64,000 nucleotides of DNA from positions 20,265 through 84,264 of the forward strand of contig VMEM01000002.1 of assembly GCA_007375535.1 (NCBI GenBank), written 5' to 3'. The translations under genes and the position numbers were made by a program. This document shows, piece after piece, positions 4,782-49,842 of this stretch (the stretch's first letter is position 1; each line of letters starts with the position of its first letter). The notes beneath the pieces were generated by a model. That model made no database searches and was not told where the DNA came from. It saw nothing but the letters and a program-made list of their open reading frames with translations. This DNA comes from Parcubacteria group bacterium LiPW_41 (GTDB lineage Bacteria; Patescibacteriota; Minisyncoccia; UBA6257; GWB1-50-10).

Positions 4782-5444
4782 ATGCTTACGGAGAAAAATA
4801 GAAGAGAAAAAGAGTTACAAAAAAGAGCAATAAAAATAATTAAAGCACTTACTTGTATGTATCCACATGCGAAGGTTTTTCTTAATTATTCAAATCCATT
4901 TGAACTTCTTGTGGCGGTAATGCTTTCAGCACAATGCACCGACAAAAAAGTTAATGAGGTTACTGAAAAATTATTTAAAAAATATAAAACGATTGACGAT
5001 TACGTGAAGGCGGGGAGAGCAGAAAAAACGGTTCTAGTGTTTGAGAACGACATAAGACAAACTGGTTTTTTTCGAGTAAAAGCAAAGCATATTTTATTAG
5101 TTGCAAAAATTATTCAAGAAAAATATAAAGGAATGATTCCTGATAATATGGAAGAACTAACAGCTCTTCCTGGAGTTGGAAGAAAAACTGCAAATATTAT
5201 TTTAGAGTCAGCGTTTGGTATTGTGGTTGGAATTCCGGTTGATACGCACGTGTTTAGACTTGCTCATAGATTCGGTCTTTCAAAACAAAAAACACCCGAT
5301 GGCGTTGAGAAAGATTTGTGTAGAATAATACCAAAACGATATTGGGCTGGGCTTTCATATAAGCTCATTTCGTATGGACGAGAGTATTGTCCTGCGAGAG
5401 CGCACGATCATGCATTGTGTCCACTTTCTAAAATTGGGGTATAA
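4782..5444 (+). CDS. nth: endonuclease III (HhH-GPD DNA glycosylase/lyase)
   Basis: HhH motif LPGVGRKTANII and a C-terminal 4Fe-4S cluster loop C-x6-C-x2-C-x5-C (CPARAHDHALCPL). Confidence 0.8.
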   Translation: MLTEKNRREKELQKRAIKIIKALTCMYPHAKVFLNYSNPFELLVAVMLSAQCTDKKVNEVTEKLFKKYKTIDDYVKAGRAEKTVLVFENDIRQTGFFRVKAKHILLVAKIIQEKYKGMIPDNMEELTALPGVGRKTANIILESAFGIVVGIPVDTHVFRLAHRFGLSKQKTPDGVEKDLCRIIPKRYWAGLSYKLISYGREYCPARAHDHALCPLSKIGV

Positions 5445-5451
5445 TTGATAT

Positions 5452-19688: not shown

Positions 19689-20885
19689 ATGAAGAAATAT
19701 TTTGGTGTTTCTCGAAATGTGTTTTTTTTGGGGATTGTCAGTATGCTGAATGATTTCTCGAGTGAAATGATTCAGGCAATCATGCCAATTTTTTTGACGG
19801 CGACGCTCGGTGCTCCTGTTTTTGTTGTTGGTCTTATTGAGGGAATAGCTGATGCACTTGCTAGTGTTTTAAAGATTGTATTTGGTTGGGTTTCGGATAA
19901 GTGGAAGATTAGAAAGAAATTTGCTGTTGCTGGATATATTTTATCTGTTTCAACTCGTCCGTTCCTTACTCTTGTCTCAAGTTTTTGGCACATCTTTTTT
20001 CTTCGTTCTATTGATAGGATCGGAAAGGGAATGAGAGACGCACCGCGTGACGCGTTAATTTCTGAATCAACTGATTTTGATATGGTTGGAAAATCATTTG
20101 GTTTCCATCGTATGATGGATACTTTTGGTGGTATGATGGGCCCGCTTCTTGTGTTTCTTCTCCTCCCTGTATTTTTTGGATCATATCAACTTATTTTTCT
20201 TGTTGCTTTTGGGATTGGTGCTCTTGCCGTTATAACATTTGTTTTTGTTGAAGAGCCGGTTCATAAAGAAGAAAAAATACCAGTCGTTGCTCCACGGATG
20301 AATTTTTCTTTTTTAAGAAGTAATAGGAGGTTTTCTTTATTCCTGTTTTCTATTTTTATTTTTGGTCTTGGTACGCTTCCAATAGCGCTTTTGTTGTTGC
20401 GTGCTCCAAGTATAGGAATTGATGTAAAATATGTTCCTATTTTTTATCTCATATATCATATTGCGTTTTTGACCGCAGCATTCCCTTTGGGGAAAATTGC
20501 TGATTCATTTGGAAGGCGACGAATTATTGTATTGGGATTTTTTGCGGCTCTTGTTTCGTATATTTCACTTATATTTGTTGAGACATTCTTTGGGTTGGTT
20601 ATTTCATTTATTCTCTTTGGTATTTATAGTGCTGCTACTGATGGAGTTGAGAGAGCGATTGCTGCACGATGGGTTGATGCACATTCTCTTGCAATGGGAC
20701 AGGGGTTGCTCAATGCTGCAGTTGGTATTTCTGCTCTTCTTGCTGGTGGAATTGGTGGATTGTTATGGACATACGTTAGTCCAGAAGCAACATTTGTGTA
20801 TGCCGCAACTCTGTCGCTTGTTGGGAGCTTGCTGTTTATCTTTCTTCTTAATGTACGTTTTAAGGATGCAAAAGAAGCGGTATAA
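19689..20885 (+). CDS. MFS transporter
   Basis: 12 predicted TM helices and MFS signatures (G-x3-D-R/K-x-G-R-R-like loops GWVSDKWKIRKK and GKIADSFGRRR). Confidence 0.6.
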   Translation: MKKYFGVSRNVFFLGIVSMLNDFSSEMIQAIMPIFLTATLGAPVFVVGLIEGIADALASVLKIVFGWVSDKWKIRKKFAVAGYILSVSTRPFLTLVSSFWHIFFLRSIDRIGKGMRDAPRDALISESTDFDMVGKSFGFHRMMDTFGGMMGPLLVFLLLPVFFGSYQLIFLVAFGIGALAVITFVFVEEPVHKEEKIPVVAPRMNFSFLRSNRRFSLFLFSIFIFGLGTLPIALLLLRAPSIGIDVKYVPIFYLIYHIAFLTAAFPLGKIADSFGRRRIIVLGFFAALVSYISLIFVETFFGLVISFILFGIYSAATDGVERAIAARWVDAHSLAMGQGLLNAAVGISALLAGGIGGLLWTYVSPEATFVYAATLSLVGSLLFIFLLNVRFKDAKEAV

Positions 20886-20893
20886 TAGAATCA

Positions 20894-21914: not shown

Positions 21915-22943
21915 ATGAAGAAGATAATCATAATTATATTTTTAATTTTGATTATCTTCTTTTTTTTGTTTTTTATATTTAAACAAAAGATTAATAACGC
22001 GCAGGAAAAAGAAATCGCTTCCATTATTCAAATGAATAATGCAATAACTCGATTGCAAAAAATAGAGGAAGAAGAAAAGAACAAAAAAGAAGAACTTTCT
22101 CTCTTGTTCGTTGGAGATGTAATGCTTTCTAGAGACATTGCTAAAAAAATACAAATAAATGGGGATCAAAAATTTCCCTTCCTTTCGGTTGCGGAAAAAT
22201 TGAGCGGAGCTGATATTGCTGTGGGCAACCTTGAAGGCCCAATTTCTTCACGAGGAAGAAATCAAGGAAGTAAGTATTCGTTTCGTGCAAATCCTGAAGT
22301 GATTGAAGGAATTCAATATGCTGGTTTTGATTTATTTTCGCTTGCAAACAATCATATCTTTGATTGGGGACGAGACGCACTAGAAGACACAATGTTGATT
22401 CTTTCGAGTTCAAGTATTAATTTTTCTGGAGTTGGAAAAAATTATGAAGATGCAAACAGGGTAACGGTTATAAAGAAGAAAGGATATTTAGTTGGATTTT
22501 TGTCTTTTACTAATTTATATCCGAAAACATTATTTGCAACAGATAAAAAATCAGGAATTAGTGAGTATGATGAAAAAAAGATTTTGGAACGAATTATTGC
22601 CATACGAAAAGAAGTTGATGTTGTGGTGGTGCTTCTTCATTGGGGAAATGAATATGAAACAAATTCAAACAATACACAGAAGAAATTTGCTCGAGAATTG
22701 ATTGATGTGGGGGCGGATATGGTTGTTGGACACCATCCACATGTCGCACAAGAAGTCGAGAAGTATAAGAATGGAATTATTGCATATAGTTTGGGGAATT
22801 TTGTATTTGACCAAGGATTTTCAAAAGAAACAATGAAGGGATTAGCACTTGATGTGAAGTGTATTGAAGCGCATACATGCTCCGCAAAACCAATTGAAGT
22901 TTTAATAAACAACGATTTCCAACCAACGTTTTCAGGGTTATAA
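21915..22943 (+). CDS. CapA/PGA_cap family metallophosphatase-like protein, membrane anchored
   Basis: N-terminal TM; LLFVGDVMLSRD, LANNHIFDWG and GHHPHV motifs. Confidence 0.7.
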   Translation: MKKIIIIIFLILIIFFFLFFIFKQKINNAQEKEIASIIQMNNAITRLQKIEEEEKNKKEELSLLFVGDVMLSRDIAKKIQINGDQKFPFLSVAEKLSGADIAVGNLEGPISSRGRNQGSKYSFRANPEVIEGIQYAGFDLFSLANNHIFDWGRDALEDTMLILSSSSINFSGVGKNYEDANRVTVIKKKGYLVGFLSFTNLYPKTLFATDKKSGISEYDEKKILERIIAIRKEVDVVVVLLHWGNEYETNSNNTQKKFARELIDVGADMVVGHHPHVAQEVEKYKNGIIAYSLGNFVFDQGFSKETMKGLALDVKCIEAHTCSAKPIEVLINNDFQPTFSGL

Positions 22944-22950
22944 TTACTTT

Positions 22951-37659: not shown

Positions 37660-39150
<1,491 letters not shown>

Positions 39151-39391
39151 ACACTTAAGTCGTAAAAAACTTTAATTTTTTAAAATGATGTGTATAACAG
39201 TTCGCTGTACGCGATCAATCGAGTAATCGAGGAAATCAACGCAGAAGGAATGATGCATACTATCGAGAGGTGTTAGCCGATAAACCTCAAATATGTCTCG
39301 GCTACGAATATGGTAAATGTCTAATTGGTTTATTATGTTCGGTGGGACGACCAAGAAAGTACTTGAAATGAATTTATTTTTATCTTTAATA

Positions 39392-39471: not shown

Positions 39472-39861
39472 ATGGCTGGAAAAACGATACTTATTGTAGA
39501 AGACGAATCTTTGCTTGGAAATTTATTGAAACAGAGGTTGGAACATGAAGGATTTACTGTAATTTGGTGTAAAGATGGAGAAGAGGCGGTTAATGTACTC
39601 CGATCAAAAAAACCTGATCTTATTTTGCTTGATCTTATTTTGCCAAAAATCTCTGGATTTGAATTATTGGAGACAATGCAAGCAGATCCTCAACTTGAGC
39701 GCGCTCCTGTTATTATTACCTCAAATCTTGGACAAGACAGCGATGTTGCTCGTGGGCAATCACTTGGTGCGATTGAATATTTTGTAAAAGCAAAAGTTTC
39801 AATTGAAGAATTAGTTGATCACGTAAAAACAATGGTCGCAAATTTGCCAGTAAATTCATAA
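39472..39861 (+). CDS. single-domain response regulator (CheY/PilH-like receiver)
   Basis: ILIVEDE...DLILLDLILP...K with the conserved D-D-D-K positions and no output domain. It lies adjacent to the pilus genes. Confidence 0.75.
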   Translation: MAGKTILIVEDESLLGNLLKQRLEHEGFTVIWCKDGEEAVNVLRSKKPDLILLDLILPKISGFELLETMQADPQLERAPVIITSNLGQDSDVARGQSLGAIEYFVKAKVSIEELVDHVKTMVANLPVNS

Positions 39862-39879: not shown

Positions 39880-40473
39880 ATGAAACGTGGTTTCACTCTT
39901 ATTGAACTCCTAGTAGTAATAGCTATATTAGCAATTCTCGCTACTGTTATCGTTGTTATCATCAACCCTGGTGAACTATTAAAGCAAGCACGAGACACTA
40001 CTCGTATTTCTGATCTTGCAGCAATAAACAGTGCAATAGCATTGTATCTATCGGATGTAACTACCCCATATTTGAAAAATGGTGCTGCCTGTACTGCAGG
40101 AACACACTATGGAACTGTTGTGCCTTCTCCAGCTACATCAACTCCATTTGCTGTTGCAGGAAGTGTTGCTGCTGCGACCGGTGTAACAACTTCAGTTTCT
40201 GGAGCTGGTTGGGTAAGTGTTAACTTCACTTCGATCTCATCAGGTTCTCCTCTTGCTCGTCTTCCAATGGATCCACAAAATACTCAGACTTATTACTATG
40301 CCTATGGATGTGGAACTGGAACATTAAATGGCGATCTTAGTTACGAAGTGAATGCAAAAATGGAGAGTACGAAGTATGGAAGTTCATCAAGTACTGCAAA
40401 CGTTGTCTCAAATGTAAAAGATGGTGGAGACAATGCAACGTGGTACGAAATTGGAAACAATCTAACTCAGTAG
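39880..40473 (+). CDS. type IV pilin (prepilin N-terminal methylation/cleavage motif), paralog A
   Basis: MKRGFTLIELLVVIAILAILA is a class III signal (G|FTLIEL, Glu5). The C-terminus has a Cys pair. Confidence 0.8.
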   Translation: MKRGFTLIELLVVIAILAILATVIVVIINPGELLKQARDTTRISDLAAINSAIALYLSDVTTPYLKNGAACTAGTHYGTVVPSPATSTPFAVAGSVAAATGVTTSVSGAGWVSVNFTSISSGSPLARLPMDPQNTQTYYYAYGCGTGTLNGDLSYEVNAKMESTKYGSSSSTANVVSNVKDGGDNATWYEIGNNLTQ

Positions 40474-41138: not shown

Positions 41139-41189
41139 ATACATGATTCAAATTATAAAAGTAAGAAAAATGTATGGTAGAATTATAAA

Positions 41190-41285
41190 GAAGTGCAAAG
41201 TGCAAACTTCAAAGTGCAAAAGTTAAACTAAAAGCGTTTTAACTTCATTTTTGAGATTTGCGTTTTGAGATTTGAATTTGTTACA
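41190..41285 (+). promoter_or_regulatory. direct-repeat cluster upstream of pilB (candidate regulator binding sites)
   Basis: Three copies of agtgcaaa (aagtgcaaagtgcaaacttcaaagtgcaaaag), two copies of ttttgagatttg, and the hairpin agttaaa...tttaact. Confidence 0.35.
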
Positions 41286-41287
41286 TA

Positions 41288-43006
41288 ATGATTAATCTAC
41301 CAGGAGAAAAATTAAGAGAATTATTGCTCCGTGCAGGAATTGTGAATACTGAGACATTCTCAGTTATTCAGGAAGAGGCAACGCGAAAACGGCAGAATTT
41401 GAGTGATCTTCTTATTTCTCAAGGGATTATAAATAAAGAATACCTTTTAATCCTCATCGCTCAATTTCTTGGGGTTGAGCGTATCAATCTTGGAGTAACC
41501 AAAATTGATGAAACGGTGCTTAATTTATTACCAGAAGATGTTGCTCGTAGGAGAAAGGTGATTGTATTTGGAAAGGAGCCAGATGGAAGATTTAAGGTTG
41601 CGATGGATGATCCAAGTGATTTGGAAACTATTGATTTTCTTTCATTAAAATTAGCAGGAAAGATAAAGCCATATCTTGCGACGGAAGAAGATTTAAATAG
41701 AGGATTCACTGCGTATGGGAAGAAAATCACGCAGGATTTTAAAAAAATAATTGAAGAAAGCGTTCGCGAATCCCTAAAGTCAAAAGCACGTGGAGATATT
41801 GCCACCCAAGGTGCTGAAGACCTTCCTATTGTTGCGGTAGTGGACAATCTTTTGTCATATGCAGTTTCGTCTCGTGCATCTGATGCTCATTTTGAAATTC
41901 TTGATGATTCAATTCTTGTTCGATTTCGTATTGATGGAATTTTACATGAAATTATTAGAATGCCAAAGGAAATTCATCCCGCGGTTATTGCTCGATTGAA
42001 AATTCTTTCGAGTTTGCGCGTTGATGAACATCGTGCACCACAAGATGGACGATTCAGATATAAAATTGGTGGCACCTCTGTTGATATTCGTGTTTCCATT
42101 CTCCCGACATTTTATGGCGAAAAAGTTGTTATGCGTATTTTGAGTGGAGCACAAAAACCAGTTTCACTTGCTGACCTTGGAGTATTTGAATCCGATATTC
42201 ATATCATTGAAGAAGCAATAAAAAAGACATATGGAATGGTGCTTGCGTGTGGGCCAACTGGATCAGGAAAAACAACAACATTGTATTCAATTTTGAATAT
42301 GTTGAATAAACCTGAGGTAAATATTATTACCGTTGAAGATCCAATTGAATATGACATGAGATATGTGAATCAGGTGCAGGTGAATAACGCCGCAGGAATC
42401 ACGTTTGCATCAGGGCTTCGTTCAATACTTCGTCAAGATCCAAATATTGTTATGGTGGGAGAAATTCGTGATGGTGAAACGGCAAACATTGCGGTTCAAG
42501 CTGCACTTACTGGGCACTTGGTATTGTCGTCTTTGCACACCAACGATGCACCAACAACTATTCCACGTTTTATTGATATGGGTGTTCCTCCGTTTCTTAT
42601 TTCTGCGGTGTTGAATACCGTCGTTGCACAACGTCTTGTGCGAAAAATTCACCTGAATTGTATTGAGTCATACGAACCAGATGAGGTGACACTTACTGCA
42701 ATACAACGCGAACTTCTTCTTTTGGGAGTTGATCCAAAAAGTATAAAGCTTCCAAAAACATTTTACCGTGGGAAAGGATGCAGTGGATGTAATTTTGTGG
42801 GAACTATCGGACGTATAGGAATTTATGAGGTATTAAATATTACTGAATCCATACGCAAACTTATTATGGATGGATCATTCAGTATGGATATGTTAAAAAT
42901 GCAAGCACAAAAAGAGGGGATGATAACAATGTTTGAAGACGGACTTCGAAAAGTAGAACGAGGAACAACAACGATTGAGGAGGTTATGCGCGTTATACGG
43001 GAATAA
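41288..43006 (+). CDS. pilB: type IV pilus assembly ATPase PilB (GspE family)
   Basis: N-terminal GSPII domains, Walker A GPTGSGKTTT, Asp box, His box, and a tetracysteine motif (CSGC...). Confidence 0.9.
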   Translation: MINLPGEKLRELLLRAGIVNTETFSVIQEEATRKRQNLSDLLISQGIINKEYLLILIAQFLGVERINLGVTKIDETVLNLLPEDVARRRKVIVFGKEPDGRFKVAMDDPSDLETIDFLSLKLAGKIKPYLATEEDLNRGFTAYGKKITQDFKKIIEESVRESLKSKARGDIATQGAEDLPIVAVVDNLLSYAVSSRASDAHFEILDDSILVRFRIDGILHEIIRMPKEIHPAVIARLKILSSLRVDEHRAPQDGRFRYKIGGTSVDIRVSILPTFYGEKVVMRILSGAQKPVSLADLGVFESDIHIIEEAIKKTYGMVLACGPTGSGKTTTLYSILNMLNKPEVNIITVEDPIEYDMRYVNQVQVNNAAGITFASGLRSILRQDPNIVMVGEIRDGETANIAVQAALTGHLVLSSLHTNDAPTTIPRFIDMGVPPFLISAVLNTVVAQRLVRKIHLNCIESYEPDEVTLTAIQRELLLLGVDPKSIKLPKTFYRGKGCSGCNFVGTIGRIGIYEVLNITESIRKLIMDGSFSMDMLKMQAQKEGMITMFEDGLRKVERGTTTIEEVMRVIRE

Positions 43007-43041: not shown

Positions 43042-44247
43042 ATGAAATTTCATTACATTGCATCACAACAAGATGGCCGGGTAATTGAGGGGGACGTGGA
43101 CGCGGTAAGCGTGCAGGCGGTACTTACGTATCTTTCAACAAATAATTTAAAGCCAGTAAGCGTTAAGATTATTGAAGAGCGAAAAAAAGAAATTGAGATT
43201 TTTAAAGCGCGAGTTACTATAACTGATCAGATATTTCTTACAAAATATCTTGCGTTGATGTTAAAAATCGGTACTGGTCTTTTGGAGGCAGTAAATATTC
43301 TTATCGCTGATTTTACGAAACAGGCAATCAGAGATATTTTATATGAGATTCGTTCTTCGCTTGAACAAGGACAACCATTTTATACAACGTTTGCCCGTCA
43401 CCCAAAGGTGTTTTCAAATGTATATACCAATCTTGTAAAAGCAGGGGAAGCGTCGGGAAATTTAGAAAAAATATTTCAGGACCTCACTATTGTTCTTACT
43501 AAAGAAAAAGAATTGCGCGACCAGATGAAGAGTGCTCTTGTGTATCCTGTGCTTCTTCTCATTGGTGCGGTGCTTATTCTTATGTTTTTGGTTATGTTTG
43601 CACTTCCAAAAATTGCAAAAGTGTTTATGGATTCAGGATTTGAGCCACCTGCATTTTCAAAAGCAGTATTTGCCGTTGGATTCTTTTTTGGAAAATTTGG
43701 TTTTTATTTTATTGGACTTGCGATTGTCGCCGGAATTGTTGGAGTTGTGTTCTATAGGAGTTCTATTTTCTTTCAAAGATTTATCAAAAATCTTTTTGCT
43801 GGACTCCCATTAATCAAGAATGTGGTGCACAAAATGGCGCTACAGCGATTTGCATCGACCCTTGCTTCTCTTATCAAAGCGGGCATGCCACTTACTGAAG
43901 CGTTGAAGATTACATCAGATGCAGTAGCAAACCAGGCGGTGGGAGATGCGTTAATTCGTATTGCAGATCAAGGACTTGCAAAAGGACTTACCATTGGTGA
44001 AGCGTTTCGTCGCGAACCAGTGTTTCCACAGACAATTTCAAATCTTGTAGCAATTTCTGAACGTGCAGGACACTTGGACGAAGTGTTGGAAACACTCGGA
44101 GAGTTCTATGCAAAAGAAATTGATTCTTCAATTAAGGAGCTTGTTTCATTCCTTGAACCAGCATTGTTGTTGTTTATTGGTGTGATCATTGGTGTCATTG
44201 CACTTGCAATTATTGTTCCAATTTATCAACTTACAACACAATTTTAA
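43042..44247 (+). CDS. pilC: type IV pilus platform protein PilC (GspF family)
   Basis: Two GspF repeats and three TM helices. Confidence 0.85.
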   Translation: MKFHYIASQQDGRVIEGDVDAVSVQAVLTYLSTNNLKPVSVKIIEERKKEIEIFKARVTITDQIFLTKYLALMLKIGTGLLEAVNILIADFTKQAIRDILYEIRSSLEQGQPFYTTFARHPKVFSNVYTNLVKAGEASGNLEKIFQDLTIVLTKEKELRDQMKSALVYPVLLLIGAVLILMFLVMFALPKIAKVFMDSGFEPPAFSKAVFAVGFFFGKFGFYFIGLAIVAGIVGVVFYRSSIFFQRFIKNLFAGLPLIKNVVHKMALQRFASTLASLIKAGMPLTEALKITSDAVANQAVGDALIRIADQGLAKGLTIGEAFRREPVFPQTISNLVAISERAGHLDEVLETLGEFYAKEIDSSIKELVSFLEPALLLFIGVIIGVIALAIIVPIYQLTTQF

Positions 44248-44296
44248 AAATTTTATAATTTTTAATTTCCAATTTTTAAACAAATCCAAAATTCTA

Positions 44297-45451
44297 ATGT
44301 TTAAAACATTACTTACAAAATTCAAAAATTACAAAATTCAAAAATTACCAGAACGTTTCGCACGTTCTGGTTTTACCATGATTGAGCTCATGGTGGTTAT
44401 TGCGATTGTGGTTTCTCTTTCTGTTACTTCTTTTATCGCGTTTTCAAACGTTTCAAGTTCTAAAGCGGTAAAAAATGGACTTGATGAAATGGAAGCATTA
44501 ATTACGGCGGCACGAAGAAAATCAATATCACAAGAAAATGGTGCTCGTTGGGGTGTACGAACGGAGAATACAACAACATCGAAACGCATGGTGTTGTTTA
44601 GTGGTGTGTCATATGCATCAGGAACTCCGTCGAACTATTATTCGTTAAAAAGAAATGTAGTGTTCACTAATCCTGTTGCTTCAACCACCTATGATGTTTT
44701 GTTTGATCCAATTACGGGGTTTCTTTCCGAAAAGAAAGTAATAACTGTTGCAACATTAAAAAGAGATGGAATTGTTGGTGATTTAGTATTAAACACTATT
44801 GGGGCAGTAACCAAACGATATGATTATGGGGTGGTGGGATATTGGCATTTTGATGAGGGAACAGGAACGATTGCCTATGATGCATCAGGAAGGGGAAATA
44901 ATGGGACACTTACTAATGGTCCTACGTGGCAGGTAAGTACAAATTGTAAAGCTGGGATGTGTTTGAATTTTGATGGAACTGATGATTATATTTCAACCTC
45001 TTCTATTCCAAATTTGACTAGTGAATTTAGTTTCTCTGTTTGGGCAAAAACTCCCATTTTACAAGATTCAACTTACGATACGATAATCTCAAAGTTTTCT
45101 TCGTCCCCATATAATGGTTGGTTTTTGAGGCATAGTCCAAATACTAATGCAATTTATTTTTCTTTTTATAATGCTGGATCTTCATATTCAGTTTCTACTT
45201 CTGCACTTACCGCAAACACCTGGATTCATTATGTGGGTACCTTTGATGGGTCAAATATGAAACTCTATACTAATGGTCTTTTGTCTGGTACTCAGGTTGG
45301 GTCTGTTGGATCTGCAACAACAAATTTTGCTATTGGTGGTAATTACGGGGGACCATCAGAAACCTGGAATGGTTCTATAGACGAGGTTCGTGTTTATAAT
45401 CGTGCATTGTCTGCAAGTGAGATTTTAGCGATGTATAATGACCTTAAGTAA
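44297..45451 (+). CDS. minor pilin-like protein: long leader, prepilin motif and a C-terminal LamG/ConA-like jelly-roll
   Basis: The 25-aa K/I-rich leader ends ...RSG|FTMIELMVVIAIV. The C-terminus carries WHFDEGTGTIAYDASGRGNNGTL...LNFDGTDDYIS...IDEVRVYNRALSASEI, a LamG-like pattern. Confidence 0.7.
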   Translation: MFKTLLTKFKNYKIQKLPERFARSGFTMIELMVVIAIVVSLSVTSFIAFSNVSSSKAVKNGLDEMEALITAARRKSISQENGARWGVRTENTTTSKRMVLFSGVSYASGTPSNYYSLKRNVVFTNPVASTTYDVLFDPITGFLSEKKVITVATLKRDGIVGDLVLNTIGAVTKRYDYGVVGYWHFDEGTGTIAYDASGRGNNGTLTNGPTWQVSTNCKAGMCLNFDGTDDYISTSSIPNLTSEFSFSVWAKTPILQDSTYDTIISKFSSSPYNGWFLRHSPNTNAIYFSFYNAGSSYSVSTSALTANTWIHYVGTFDGSNMKLYTNGLLSGTQVGSVGSATTNFAIGGNYGGPSETWNGSIDEVRVYNRALSASEILAMYNDLK

Positions 45452-45560
45452 ATTTCAATTTACAAATTTCAAATTTCAATTTAATTTTCCAATGACCCAA
45501 TTTCAAAATTTATTCATTTATGCATTCATTTAAAATTTTAAATTTAAAACTTAAAATTCT
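45452..45560 (+). repeat. ~105 bp AT-rich repeat element, copy 1 (overlaps the start of the gene at 45520)
   Basis: atttcaatttacaaatttcaaatttcaatttaatt..ccaatgacccaattt..aaaattt..aaatttaaaacttaaaatt; shared by copies 2 and 3. Confidence 0.6.
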
Positions 45561-46833
45561 TCTGCAAAGCAGAAGTGGTCAATCTTTGGCGGAAGTAATG
45601 ATTGGTCTTGCGATTGGTGCAATCTTGATTGGTGCTGCCTCGTTTGCAATTACCACTACACTGAAAACAAATCTAACTACTCAGCGTTCACAGTTTGCAG
45701 CAAATGCTGCGCAAGAAACAATTGAGCGTGTTCGTGCGTTCGCATCTTCTGATTGGCAAAATATTTATGGACTTACAAAAGGGTCATCAACGCAATATTA
45801 TTTTGTTGCGACAGGAACACAGTTTTTTGTAAATCAAGGAAAGGAGGGAGTTGTAGAGAATGATATTCGTAGTGGCTTGGTTGGTCAGTGGGGATTTGAC
45901 GAGGCCACAGGAACGGTTGCGTATGATATGACGGGGAATAGGAATAATACAAATTTTTCTGGTAGCATTGTTCGTGCTACAACAACATGTAAAATTGGTA
46001 ATTGTGTTGGGCTTGATGGAGCTAGTGATTCTTATATAAGTAGTAGTAATAATATGTCACCGACCTCAAGTCAGACATATTCCATATGGATTAAACCTAA
46101 TGTTTTGAGTGGTTTGGTTGGTATCTTTACGACACATAACTATGTCTTAACATCAAATATTGGGATAAATTTAACGAATGATAGATTATCCATATCTATT
46201 GGATATACAGATGGGACAAGAGAATTCAGCACAAAATTAAGTAATTTTTTGTTATCGACAAATAGTTGGACTCACGTTGTTCTTATATATAACGCTACAG
46301 ATAATTCTGTTAGTTTTTATGTAAACGGTACGTATGATAGTAGGTGGGCGTTAGCAAAGACTGTCAAATTTACCTCAGAGAAAGTACTTTTTGGTCAGTG
46401 GTCATATGTATATTTAGGCAACTACAGATTTAATGGATCTATTGATGACGCTCGTATTTATAATCGTGCACTTTCTGCTGATGAGGTGAAACAGCTTTAT
46501 AACAGTGCAACATATACTCGTTATTTTTATGTTGAAAATGGATGCAGGACAAATGATGCGTCGAGTACATATTCCGGGGTTAGTCCTTGTGGTGGTGGAT
46601 CTGTTGATGATCCATCAAGTCAGAAAATAAGTTCTGTTGTTCAATGGGGAACAGGAGGAACTGGACAGATTATACTTGCAGATATTTTGACACGATGGAA
46701 AAATGCGATCTTTCAACAAAGTGATTGGTCGGGAGGAGTTTCAGAAAATGTATTAATCAATTCAGGAACGACATTTGCGTCTTCATCAAACGTAAACTCT
46801 GGAGGAGGAAGCCTAAGAATCAACGGACTCTAG
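45520..46833 (+). CDS. minor pilin-like protein 2: long leader, prepilin-like motif and LamG-like domain
   Basis: ...QSRSG|QSLAEVMIGLAIGAILIGA (Glu at +5); then WGFDEATGTVAYDMTGNRNN...GLDGASDSYIS...IDDARIYNRALSADEV. Confidence 0.6.
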   Translation: MHSFKILNLKLKILLQSRSGQSLAEVMIGLAIGAILIGAASFAITTTLKTNLTTQRSQFAANAAQETIERVRAFASSDWQNIYGLTKGSSTQYYFVATGTQFFVNQGKEGVVENDIRSGLVGQWGFDEATGTVAYDMTGNRNNTNFSGSIVRATTTCKIGNCVGLDGASDSYISSSNNMSPTSSQTYSIWIKPNVLSGLVGIFTTHNYVLTSNIGINLTNDRLSISIGYTDGTREFSTKLSNFLLSTNSWTHVVLIYNATDNSVSFYVNGTYDSRWALAKTVKFTSEKVLFGQWSYVYLGNYRFNGSIDDARIYNRALSADEVKQLYNSATYTRYFYVENGCRTNDASSTYSGVSPCGGGSVDDPSSQKISSVVQWGTGGTGQIILADILTRWKNAIFQQSDWSGGVSENVLINSGTTFASSSNVNSGGGSLRINGL

Positions 46834-46962
46834 ACAATTTTAATTTACAAATTTTAAATTTCAATTTAATGCTTCAATGACTCAATTTTAAAATTTATTC
46901 ACTTAGAAATTCAATTAAAATTTGAAATTTAAAACTTAGAATTTATCAGGTATAATGAATCT
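46834..46962 (+). repeat. ~105 bp AT-rich repeat element, copy 2, ending in GGTATAAT 6 nt before the ATG
   Basis: See copy 1. The terminal ggtataat-gaatct-ATG indicates a promoter for a leaderless transcript. Confidence 0.6.
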
Positions 46963-47367
46963 ATGGAAACTCGGAATTACAGTGAAGCACTAAATGAGGG
47001 GTACAAACGACTTCATGCACAAATTGAGGTAGAACGTGCGAAACCTGAGAATGCGGAAATTCAGGAACGAGATATCGTTAAAAAATCAGTAGTTGGGGTT
47101 GTTCAATCAATAAAATCAACACAACCAGCAGAAGAAAAGAAAGAGGAGAAGCCGGTTGAACTTCATGTTATTCCGGAATATGCCGAAAGAGAACCAGAGA
47201 TATTAAGAAAAGAAATTGAAGTACTTGTTGAATCTGCGGCAAACAGCGGTCTTGAACAAGCGGTCCGGGAATCATTAAAGCATTCGTCATTTGTACAAGA
47301 TGCATTTCATGATGCATTGGTTGACAAGCTGATTCCAGAAATGAAGAAGAGAGGAATTCTGAAATAA
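46963..47367 (+). CDS. hypothetical acidic helical protein
   Basis: 134 aa with no recognisable motif, lying between two repeat copies in the pilus locus. Confidence 0.4.
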   Translation: METRNYSEALNEGYKRLHAQIEVERAKPENAEIQERDIVKKSVVGVVQSIKSTQPAEEKKEEKPVELHVIPEYAEREPEILRKEIEVLVESAANSGLEQAVRESLKHSSFVQDAFHDALVDKLIPEMKKRGILK

Positions 47368-47469
47368 TTTCAATTTACAAATTTTAAATTTCAATTTAAT
47401 TCTCCAATGACCAAATTTAAAATTTTTACATTCAATTAAAATTTGAAATTTAGAACTTAAAATTTATCC
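47368..47469 (+). repeat. ~105 bp AT-rich repeat element, copy 3
   Basis: Near-identical to copy 2 through ...ttcaattaaaatttgaaatttagaacttaaaatttatcc-ATG. Confidence 0.6.
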
Positions 47470-49842
47470 ATGGCTTCCTTCATTATTTTTATCTCAATTC
47501 TAGTTGCTGCCATTATTGGTGTTGGGTTGTTTTTTCTTTGGAAAAACAAAATTAAGAAAGCACTTGTTGAGCAGCTTTCGATGAAGTTGTTTTTGATAAA
47601 GCTTCCAAGAGAATCAAAAGAGGGAAGAGAGTTGAAAAAAGAAATAAGCATTTCTGAACAGCTTATTGCTGCGCTTGCCTCATTTAAAAAACCGTTTGCG
47701 TTTGAAGTTGCAGTTCCGCACGTGGGAGAAGAAATTCATTTTTATATTTCAGTTCCACAAGTTGCAGGAGAAGCAGTTGCGAGACAAATTCAAGCACTTT
47801 GGAAAGATGCAGATGTGATTCCGGTAGATGACTACAATATTTTTAATCCCGCGGGTGCGGTTTCAGCATTTTCACTCTCACAACGTGATTATTACGTTGT
47901 TCCGCTTCGCACGTATCAAGAATTTGAATCAGATACATTTCTCTCTGTTCTAGGTGGTCTTGCACAGATAAATGAAGTTGGAGAGGGGTGTGCAATTCAA
48001 TACATTGTTCGTCCCGCAGATAGATCAGCAAAGAAAAATATTCAGAAAGCAATTGAAGAGTTGCGAAAAGGAAGAAAAGCAAAGGATGTAATTTATACAA
48101 AAAATAATGGAGACCTTTCATTTAAAGAAATTGGAGAGATAGCGGTAAAAGGAAGTGAAGCAATTGATAAAAAAGACGAAAAGAGTGTTGATGAGCATGC
48201 GGTAAAAATGCTTGAAGGGAAAATATCAAAACCATTATTTTTGGTAAATGTGCGAGTTGTTGCGTCTGCCCCAAGTGAACCACAAGCAAGAGCAATTACT
48301 GATGGAGTTGCTGCTGGGTTTGCACAATTTACGTCCCCAGAACGAAATGAGATAACGGTTCGATATTATAAAAAACCTGAAGCGCTCGCTCATAAATTTA
48401 TTTTCAGAGAACATTCGAAGGATGAGGCTATGGTAATGAATTCCGAAGAACTCGCAAGTATTTTTCATTTACCAACTGCATTTACTGAGGTTTCACGGGT
48501 GAGCTATTTGAAATCGCGTGAAGCCCCACCTCCATCGGAAACTCCACGAGAAGGTCTTGTTATTGGTGAGAGTAGATTTCACGGAATGAAACGTGAGATT
48601 CGTTTGACTCGCGAAGATAGACGCAGGCATTTATATCTAATTGGACAAACCGGAACAGGAAAATCTGTATTTTTAAACAATGCTTCAGGACAGGATATTT
48701 TAAATGGAGATGGTGTTTGTCTTATTGATCCAAATGGAGATCTTTTTGAAGATGTATTAAATCGAGTTCCTGAATCACGTGCTAAGGATGTGATTGTCTT
48801 TGATCCATCGGACATGGACAGGCCACTTTCAGTGAACATGCTTGAGTATGATGCACGTTTTCCTGAACAAAAAACATTCATCATAAATGAACTGATGATG
48901 ATTTTTGATACGTTATATGATTTGAAAGCAACGGGTGGCCCTATGTTTGAACAGTATGCAAGGAATGCATTGTTGTTATTGATGGATGATCCAAGTGCTG
49001 GGTATACCATTTTGGAAATTCCTCGAGTGCTCTCCGACTCAAATTTCCGTGAAATGTTACTTTCAAAATGTACTAATCTTATTGCAAAAGATTTTTGGGA
49101 GAAGGAAGCAGAGCAGGCGGGAGGTGAGGCTTCGCTTCAAAATATGGTTCCTTACATCACTTCGAAATTTAGCACATTTATTGCAAATGATTACGTCCGC
49201 CCTATTATTGCTCAATCAAAGAGTTCTCTAGATTTTAGAAAAATTATGGATGAGGGAAAGATTTTACTCGTGAATCTTTCGAAAGGAAGAATTGGAGAGT
49301 TGAATGCGAGTTTGCTCGGAATGATCATTGTTGGGAAACTTACCATGGCGGCGTTTTCTCGTGCTGATATGGCGGATCGAGATGCACGTAGAGATTTCTA
49401 TTTATATATTGATGAGTTTCAGAATTTCACAACTCCTTCAATCTCAACTATTCTTTCTGAGGCAAGAAAATATCGATTGTGTCTTACTGTTGCACACCAA
49501 TTTATTGCGCAATTAAAGGATCCGATTCGTGATGCGATTTTTGAAAACGTTGGTTCAATGATCTCGTTCCGTATTGGTCCGAACGATGCAGAATTTCTCG
49601 AAAAACAATTTGCTCCAACGTTTAATAAAAATGATTTAATTAATGTTGATAACTTAAATGCGTATGCGAAGATAATCATCAATAATAAGATCTATCCTCC
49701 TTTTTCTTTGTTTGTTCCATTTCCTCCAAAAGGAATTGCGACGCGTGGAGCACAAATAAGAGAATATTCACGATTGATGTATGGAAGACCAAAAGCCGAC
49801 GTTGATGCAGAAATTTACTCTCGATTACGAGAATCTCGTTAA
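47470..49842 (+). CDS. membrane-anchored P-loop ATPase of the FtsK/HerA/TrwB(VirD4)-like superfamily
   Basis: N-terminal TM; Walker A YLIGQTGTGKSVFL about 30 aa before IDPNGD; Walker B LYIDEFQNF; then AHQ. About 790 aa in total. Confidence 0.55.
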   Translation: MASFIIFISILVAAIIGVGLFFLWKNKIKKALVEQLSMKLFLIKLPRESKEGRELKKEISISEQLIAALASFKKPFAFEVAVPHVGEEIHFYISVPQVAGEAVARQIQALWKDADVIPVDDYNIFNPAGAVSAFSLSQRDYYVVPLRTYQEFESDTFLSVLGGLAQINEVGEGCAIQYIVRPADRSAKKNIQKAIEELRKGRKAKDVIYTKNNGDLSFKEIGEIAVKGSEAIDKKDEKSVDEHAVKMLEGKISKPLFLVNVRVVASAPSEPQARAITDGVAAGFAQFTSPERNEITVRYYKKPEALAHKFIFREHSKDEAMVMNSEELASIFHLPTAFTEVSRVSYLKSREAPPPSETPREGLVIGESRFHGMKREIRLTREDRRRHLYLIGQTGTGKSVFLNNASGQDILNGDGVCLIDPNGDLFEDVLNRVPESRAKDVIVFDPSDMDRPLSVNMLEYDARFPEQKTFIINELMMIFDTLYDLKATGGPMFEQYARNALLLLMDDPSAGYTILEIPRVLSDSNFREMLLSKCTNLIAKDFWEKEAEQAGGEASLQNMVPYITSKFSTFIANDYVRPIIAQSKSSLDFRKIMDEGKILLVNLSKGRIGELNASLLGMIIVGKLTMAAFSRADMADRDARRDFYLYIDEFQNFTTPSISTILSEARKYRLCLTVAHQFIAQLKDPIRDAIFENVGSMISFRIGPNDAEFLEKQFAPTFNKNDLINVDNLNAYAKIIINNKIYPPFSLFVPFPPKGIATRGAQIREYSRLMYGRPKADVDAEIYSRLRESR

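Follow-up and report, generated by a model that had tools for sequence, protein, structure and literature searches.

Why three nearly identical AT-rich repeats should stand at the starts of three consecutive genes of a pilus locus is the question raised by a stretch of DNA from Parcubacteria group bacterium LiPW_41 (GTDB lineage Bacteria; Patescibacteriota; Minisyncoccia; UBA6257; GWB1-50-10). The stretch, hereafter the window, comprises 64,000 nucleotides (nt) of contig VMEM01000002.1 of assembly GCA_007375535.1 (positions 20,265 to 84,264 of the forward strand). Genomes of the Candidate Phyla Radiation (CPR), or Patescibacteria, are tiny and densely packed, and the pili of uncultivated episymbionts are thought to mediate contact with the host and uptake of DNA; of CPR promoters, translation signals and mobile DNA almost nothing is known to us. 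An earlier note on this DNA had read the repeat as a promoter or operator cassette, or as a small element resembling a miniature inverted-repeat transposable element (MITE), co-opted for co-regulation of the pilus accessory genes. The repeat, here called family A, is restricted to one clade, is not specific for pilus genes, and is one of several interchangeable families (A to E) at gene junctions of a small group of Paceibacterota, where such cassettes were added to an ancestrally compact pilB-pilC-pilin-pilin-hypothetical-ATPase operon. With confidence that is about evenly balanced, we regard A as a junction repeat of the MITE or repetitive extragenic palindromic (REP) type that has in part been co-opted. 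Its host genome lacks an anti-Shine-Dalgarno (anti-SD) sequence, and leaderless-type gene starts are frequent there; both the function and the mobility of A we infer.

A profile built from the three window copies, run over the window with nhmmer, matched positions 45450-45563 (E 1.7e-26), 46836-46947 (E 7.8e-27) and 47366-47472 (E 2.9e-23), so that the presence of three related elements of about 105 bp at consecutive pilus gene starts, as the earlier note had it, is borne out at E values of 1e-23 to 1e-27. Neither the profile nor a search with the core detected a fourth copy in the window. The copies are pairwise 87-91% identical and share a 29-nt core, AATTTACAAATTTYAAATTTCAATTTAAT, which occurs three times in the window against an expectation of none (100 shuffles). 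Chance low-complexity AT sequence was considered and is ruled out by the profile E values, the lack of any match in shuffled sequence and an identity of 94-99% across genomes. Each element is an imperfect palindrome of 102-112 nt with about 85% A+T, which consists of a left array of four to five units of 6-7 nt (AAATTTC, AATTTAC), a centre containing CCAATGAC and an imperfectly inverted right array. The internal direct and inverted repeats that had been described are real: Tandem Repeats Finder (TRF) returns a period of 7 nt with about four copies per arm, and the arms are 75-84% complementary over 26-57 nt (75% for 57-nt arms, 77-81% for arms of 26-27 nt). The size and the terminal inverted repeats are those of a MITE (50-500 bp), without a conserved open reading frame (ORF). 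The short ATG-initiated ORFs in the centre of all three copies differ in length and were rejected as candidate genes. The AATGAC core is part of the centre of A and also of another repeated motif, GGAATGAC or GGGATGAC, which in GC-richer surroundings fills junctions in relatives (L001 6090-6160, L009 5340-5490 and L010 1520-1700; loci and contigs of relatives are given here by L numbers).

All three copies lie on the plus strand, begin at the stop codon of the upstream gene or no more than 2-5 nt from it (TAA 45449-45451, TAG 46831-46833 and TAA 47365-47367) and extend to or into the start of the next gene. Copy 1 (45452-45558) has its left heptad array at 45452-45487 and CCAATGAC at 45489-45496; its centre holds the ATG of LamG-pilin B (45520), and the right array (45528-45558) is translated as the prepilin leader MHSFKILNLKLKILLQSRSG. 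The earlier observation that this copy runs into the pilin ORF and encodes part of the leader is thus correct. Of the three, it alone can be read through the right arm without meeting a stop, in a frame opened by copy 1-specific substitutions; in copies 2 and 3 every corresponding frame is interrupted by stop codons. That the centre accommodates the pilin start codon and the right arm an open frame explains why the arms of copy 1 pair worst. Copy 2 (46836-46947) is non-coding, with TTCAATGAC at 46873-46881, the right array at 46905-46947 and TAGAAT at 46937-46942; it lies where the earlier note placed it, but the repeat proper ends near 46947 and does not reach 46962. Copy 3 (47368-47469) fills the entire gap between the gene for a 134-amino-acid (134-aa) hypothetical protein and the ATPase gene, with CCAATGAC at 47404-47411.

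The distribution of family A outside the window bears directly on the question of whether it clusters only at pilus genes. In a collection with one genome per species, A was found only in the metagenome-assembled genome JBAZZD01 of Candidatus Paceibacterota, and a metagenome scan added a 746-kb contig (Ga0074198_1000007) and one short contig; both scans used an exact 24-mer core and under-count diverged copies, as shown by copy 3 of L011, which has TTTATA in the core and was missed. The five exact-core copies of JBAZZD01 are dispersed over four contigs, as MITE copies are; the pilus locus has two of them, and the other three, all half or partial and two of them reversed, are found away from it. 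The junction between a gene for a DsbD-like membrane protein and a widely conserved gene of 176 aa carries a full copy (746-kb contig; L009) and, in L005, a left-half copy; a reversed copy precedes a SWIB-domain gene in L004, and a reversed half copy precedes a GT2/GtrA glycosyltransferase gene in L001. These non-pilus neighbours are unrelated to pili, so that in the relatives A is not limited to pilus genes. The unit common to all twelve A copies is the 57-nt left half. Phage, plasmid and viral collections gave no match to the repeat, and no transposase linked to family A was found. L003, L007 and L008 were rejected as members of the family, being unrelated organisms with only a short heptad run in common. 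This 24-nt run, AAATTTACAAATTTCAAATTTCAATTT, lies between genes on GC-rich contigs (L003 5116-5148, titled Akkermansiaceae, and L008 2414-2446) and is probably an independent short array.

Orthologous pilus loci were retrieved, via homologues of the 134-aa protein, from four further lineages and two outgroups, and contigs of the window's own population from run SRR8863432, in which one Logan contig matches the window at 100% identity. The order of the genes does not vary among the relatives or the outgroups. In the latter (L020 and L022) the same genes are separated by junctions of only 4-22 nt, and the cassettes are therefore later additions. Within the clade, each slot between two genes holds either a near-identical cassette or a wholly unrelated one of the same design. 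Slot 0, before LamG-pilin A, carries family B in the window and L011, and C in L002 and L014. Slot 1, that of copy 1, has A only in the window and L002, with other types in L011 and L014. Slot 2, that of copy 2, has A in the window and L016, B in L002 and L011, and D in L014 and L018, whereas slot 3, that of copy 3, has A in four lineages and E in L018. A tree based on protein identity has the form ((window, L014/L016), (L002, L011)), L018, L020, with which the pattern at slot 0 is in conflict. The flanks of slot 2 are 95% identical between L016 and L014, but L016 holds A and L014 an unrelated cassette, the change of sequence falling precisely on the stop codon at one end and on the -10 box at the other.

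Similar turnover is seen away from the pilus genes. The DsbD-like/176-aa junction is found with a full or a half copy of A, with an E copy in reversed orientation, or with no more than some 26 nt; between conserved flanks it measures 99 nt of A in L009, 57 nt in L005 and 9-10 nt in L024 and L025, of which the last could be a deletion remnant. The junction that follows it is compact (5 nt) in two lineages, whereas in each of three more it is filled, every time by a different cassette. Copies can also be disrupted, since copy 3 of L014 has suffered a 26-nt deletion and carries a 40-nt GC-rich palindrome, which is inside copy 3 in L014/L016. This REP-like palindrome, CCTGCCTACCGGCAGGCAGG (L014 7788-7827), recurs at about 1405-1425 in L010 and about 7273-7290 in L014, and is absent from the window.

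How genes in this genome start is relevant to what a 100-nt insertion would do. The 3' tail of the 16S rRNA (39140-39155, GGAUUAAUUACACU) lacks the CCUCC anti-SD sequence, and SD-like motifs precede only seven of the 62 inferred genes. In 23 of the 62, a TAnnnT box stands upstream with its end 4-9 nt from the ATG, 6 nt being the commonest distance, and most of the remaining genes follow the preceding stop codon at no more than 12 nt. Altogether 49 starts are coupled to the previous gene (at most 12 nt), preceded by a -10 box, or of SD type. To judge from these predicted signals, the genome's arrangement implies that leaderless transcripts are widespread. In the local promoters a G or T stands two bases before the -10 box (22/22), with TTG some 17 nt upstream. 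The -10-like boxes are often preceded by GG (for example 852-857, 5440-5445, 20881-20886, 22939-22944 and 46951-46956). Two candidates were discarded: pairing of A with the 16S rRNA, for which the longest complementary stretches (8-9 nt) are no better than in shuffles, and an alternative AT-rich SD sequence to match the odd 16S tail, for which there is a weak 6-mer enrichment near starts that is confounded by composition.

Seen against this context, the claim that two copies terminate in TATAAT needs correction. The box at copy 2 (TATAAT 46951-46956, within the GGTATAAT-N6-ATG sequence at 46949-46965 on the plus strand that includes the start of the 134-aa gene) stands beyond the end of the repeat, and copy 3 has TAAAAT (47458-47463); the spacing of 6 nt to the start codon holds. 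TATAAT-N6-ATG is invariant in six loci, in which the preceding 110 nt or so belong to three unrelated families, so that by its sequence this is a canonical leaderless-type promoter-like box, independent of the repeat. Its candidate -35 region (TTTAAA, with a 17-nt spacer) falls in the right arm of copy 2. The TAAAAT of copy 3 stands 6 nt before the ATG at 47470, the commonest spacing in the genome, and TAAAAT-N6-ATG is kept in four lineages. Copy 1 has no -10-like box 6 nt before its ATG. Upstream of pilB, a promoter-like box of the extended -10 kind (TGGTAGAAT, 41175-41183, plus strand) that is kept in four lineages is followed by a bipartite heptad cassette of family E (41191-41279, plus strand) and by the pilB ATG at 41288; this cassette thus lies downstream of the box, in the 5' untranslated region (UTR). 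With the slot 2 cassette upstream of a -10 box and the pilB cassette within the 5' UTR, placement with respect to promoters is not uniform. Of the proposed promoter cassette there remains at most copy 3, with its TAAAAT at the commonest spacing but off the local extended -10 pattern, whereas copy 2 is followed by an independent box and the pilB cassette comes after its promoter.

Together, these data allow a scheme for the partial co-option of A. There is no SD pairing, and as a rule starts either are tightly coupled to the preceding stop or have a -10-like box about 6 nt before the ATG. An insertion of 100 nt would thus disrupt such coupling in translation, and it is likely that copies are kept only if the needs of the downstream gene are supplied or left intact. 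Copy 3 may do so by offering TAAAAT at leaderless distance, and copy 2 by providing the AT-rich -35 and upstream region of the independent TATAAT-N6-ATG promoter, whereas copy 1 would have evolved an ATG and a stop-free right arm, which now serves as a long prepilin leader. The elements could have spread by transposition, or by recombinational exchange of cassettes between lineages. The MITE-like alternative that had been offered for the repeat thus gains from its palindromic anatomy, from its occurrence, whole or halved and facing either way, at unrelated loci, from variation in presence and absence, and from the compact junctions of the outgroups; when its anatomy and distribution are set beside those of MITEs, REPs, Correia elements or Rickettsia palindromic elements (RPE), A matches elements of these kinds.

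Several observations weigh against a mobile junction repeat. The copies show no definable target-site duplication: inspection of seven independent junctions revealed no direct repeat that recurs consistently, and the ends of the element are themselves AATTT repeats. No clean empty site was found, the seemingly empty slots being occupied by other cassettes or by possible deletion remnants, and no transposase is tied to A. The TAAAAT of copy 3 has a C at the position two bases upstream, which is atypical in view of the 22/22 local promoters with G or T, and the E cassette at slot 3 of L018 lacks a -10-like box at the equivalent place; the pilB cassette, downstream of its promoter, also fits poorly. 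Heptad arrays (at least about four copies) are confined to five pilus-locus junctions in the 64 kb of the window, and in the 16-kb orthologous loci they likewise occur only at pilus junctions. Such clustering counts against selfish spread because random colonization does not predict it. Finally, orthologous copies are 94-99% identical, which is unexpected for selfish DNA unless exchange was recent. Clustering at pilus junctions and extreme conservation are the two features that selfish spread leaves unexplained.

The degree of conservation is best appreciated by comparison with the genes. Copy 1 is 98.5% identical to that of L002, whereas the flanking pilin genes are 66% identical; copy 3 is 94% and 97% identical to the copies of L002 and L011, and copy 2 about 98% to the copy in the same slot of L016. 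PilB, PilC and the ATPase are 80-83% identical between lineages, the LamG pilins about 65% and the 5' part of rpoB 85% (nt), with fourfold-degenerate sites at 40-60% identity, i.e. saturated. The conserved islands continue for some 25-30 nt beyond the repeats, into unique sequence at the 3' end of the gene before, synonymous sites included, and the island of copy 1 (compared with L002) stops sharply at the end of a GC-rich hairpin (45559-45575). A higher identity of cassettes than of genes points to strong purifying selection or to recent short-tract exchange between lineages.

The rival that survives best, although we consider it unlikely, is that the cassettes are dedicated operators, in which inverted arrays of four to five heptads form cooperative platforms for an oligomerising DNA-binding protein controlling the pilus and a few other genes, with either one protein per family or the design itself being what matters. 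In its favour are an identity at shared slots that exceeds that of rpoB and of every flanking gene, the restriction of the arrays to pilus-locus junctions and the recurrence of one bipartite inverted design in five unrelated families. The few differences between lineages in copy 3 are clustered in the centre, with the arms invariant, which also speaks for it. However, Pfam scans of the locus proteins gave no candidate DNA-binding protein, the nearby regulator being receiver-only, and A occurs in both orientations and as half copies beside unrelated genes. Close relatives swap families at a slot while the genes remain unchanged, the outgroups and some lineages do without cassettes, and cassettes keep no constant place with respect to promoters. 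The earlier proposal that A co-regulates the accessory genes of the pilus is not upheld either: A stands beside unrelated genes, the slots are freely swapped, and a disrupted copy 3 is tolerated in one lineage.

A bolder version of the same idea, which we find quite improbable, is that families A to E are modular cis-regulatory platforms for oligomerising DNA-binding proteins, and not selfish at all. They would then be under selection as strong as that on rRNA and be swapped as whole units, from stop codon to -10 box or ATG, possibly via natural transformation supported by the pilus itself, and the versions at pilin genes would be portable units for expression and signal peptide, consisting of start codon, leader and a GC hairpin particular to the family.

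An RNA-level role in a polycistronic pilus mRNA is another explanation that seems rather doubtful. The element could act as an unstructured, G-poor and AU-rich pad for SD-independent internal initiation, or as a long AU hairpin with a part in processing or stability. Both A and B are indeed very poor in G on the sense strand (one to three G per about 105 nt), stop and start codons are separated by about 100 nt in spite of the 16S tail without anti-SD, and the pilB cassette lies in the 5' UTR. In addition, the types at copy 3 fold at a z score of about -2, and GC hairpins follow the arrays in both pilin leaders. On the other hand, the folds of 12 cassettes range from z +0.6 to -2.1 against dinucleotide shuffles and most are not significant; RNAalifold on eight full copies predicts 20 pairs, none of which shows compensatory changes and four of which are broken by copy 1. 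No Rfam match was obtained at gathering score or at E ≤ 1, reversed copies exist, and families C, D and E are not G-poor.

Phase variation, in which slipped-strand changes in the number of 7-nt units would toggle the pilin genes, has very little going for it. Units of 7-8 nt, not multiples of three, are present within the pilin leader ORFs and upstream of starts, and seven-base repeats upstream of the hmw adhesin genes of Haemophilus are a known switch. The units here are imperfect, with four to five per arm and TRF matches of only 61-83%; their number is identical in orthologues and in contigs from the same population (L006, L012 and L015), and the only length changes are deletions of 26-42 nt. 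A site of the integron attC or Vibrio cholerae repeat (VCR) type is, like chance AT-rich low complexity, effectively refuted: imperfect palindromes of about 105 nt with 85% A+T between consecutive co-oriented genes invite the comparison, but the three copies have no GTTRRRY or RYYYAAC core, GTT is absent from copy 3, and the genes are not cassettes and keep a fixed order.

As for the other families, the five (A to E) are unrelated in sequence and have the bipartite inverted design in common. The more degenerate version of A that had been reported before 44297 is a member of family B: nhmmer gave no match of this region to the A profile at E < 10. The B cassette (44248-44370, plus strand) has a left array at 44255-44280, the ATG of LamG-pilin A at 44297 and a right array of 8/16-nt units at 44313-44349, which is translated as leader, followed by a hairpin at 44348-44370. 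The B profile matches the window, L011 (two slots), L002 and L005, and B is 96% and 91% identical to the L011 sequences at slot 0. Family B, too, is present outside the pilus locus, and a second copy of E, in reversed orientation, is found at the DsbD-like/176-aa junction in the window's own population (L023).

The hairpin at 45559-45575 (plus strand, CTTCTGCaaaGCAGAAG) directly follows copy 1 in the leader-coding region, just before the G(-1) codon. Every LamG-pilin gene of the clade (window, L011, L002 and L014) has a GC-rich hairpin with a stem of 7-9 bp directly before this cleavage codon, with a different hairpin at the equivalent position in each cassette family; sequence and encoded peptide vary accordingly, and no such hairpin is present in outgroup L020. 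When read on the minus strand, the hairpins of the clade resemble intrinsic terminators.

The locus, which is of the type IV pilus kind, follows the 16S rRNA gene (37662-39155) and a gene for a receiver-only protein (39472-39861), in which the Pfam scan found no DNA-binding domain. It comprises genes for two pilins with short leaders (starts at 39880 and 40525), PilB (41288-43006), PilC (43042-44247), LamG-pilin A (44297-45451), LamG-pilin B (45520-46833), the acidic 134-aa protein without Pfam match (46963-47367) and a membrane-anchored VirD4/TraG-like ATPase with DUF8128 and TraG-D_C (47470-49842), after which tightly packed housekeeping genes follow. The ATPase and 134-aa genes keep their syntenic place beside the pilus genes throughout the relatives and outgroups, and appear to be core parts of the locus, not remnants of a conjugative element. 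Pilins A and B share a C-terminal motif (73% nt identity over 71 nt, 45368-45438 versus 46432-46502), and the centre of pilin B is unalignable between L016 (130-598) and L014, a pair with 95% identity elsewhere. The pilin locus is by these signs mosaic and fast-diverging. One lineage only has a PF05635 gene between pilC and LamG-pilin A (L018 5019-5408, L019 5085-5477), the product of which is a four-helix-bundle protein of the 23S-rRNA-intervening-sequence type.

Such a genome can evidently hold several repeat families that colonize gene junctions. The repeats split an ancestrally compact pilus operon, and their sequence can come to serve as a start codon and prepilin leader. A cassette identity of 94-99% combined with all-or-none replacement, in lineages that are 80-85% identical (nt) in conserved flanking genes, implies either an unusual constraint on AT-rich non-coding DNA or frequent exchange of short tracts, and either outcome is informative on gene flow and regulation in uncultivated episymbionts.

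For CPR bacteria, we found no literature that bears directly on leaderless starts and anti-SD features, on MITEs or on intergenic repeats at pilus genes; the comparison below is with systems of other organisms. VCR/attC sites in Vibrio are imperfect palindromes of some 60-140 nt between consecutive co-oriented genes, from which A differs in having no core motifs and in its non-mobile genes, without an integrase being found. In the operator/centromere arrays of plasmid pSM19035, the omega repressor, a ribbon-helix-helix protein, recognizes the heptad WATCACW in three arrays upstream of three genes. WATCACW is absent from A, Pfam scans of the locus proteins, the only search made, gave no ribbon-helix-helix protein, and the copies are chromosomal, dispersed and variably placed with respect to promoters; the likeness lies in contiguous 7-bp units, both direct and inverted, forming three arrays before three genes. 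REPs are short GC-rich hairpins linked to REP-associated tyrosine transposases (RAYT). With about 85% A+T and without a significant fold, A is not such a GC-rich stable hairpin, but like REPs and bacterial interspersed mosaic elements (BIME), and like enterobacterial repetitive intergenic consensus sequences or intergenic repeat units (ERIC/IRU), it is an imperfect palindrome that lies between genes, often within operons, and varies in presence between relatives. The Correia elements of Neisseria are MITEs with 26-bp terminal inverted repeats, a TA target duplication, an integration host factor (IHF) site and hundreds of copies; they can give promoter elements to their neighbours and are often co-transcribed. 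A has no definable target-site duplication, its arms are tandem arrays of AT-rich heptads, its known copies are a handful and there is no sequence relationship; it does resemble Correia elements (about 100-150 nt) in its terminal inverted repeats, its intergenic position and its dispersal in either orientation. RPEs insert inside genes and add internal peptide segments, whereas A is found at junctions, where only the right arm with a new ATG is translated. In both cases, small palindromes in a reduced genome are translated in frame, in the present one as the prepilin leaders provided by copy 1 and the B cassette.

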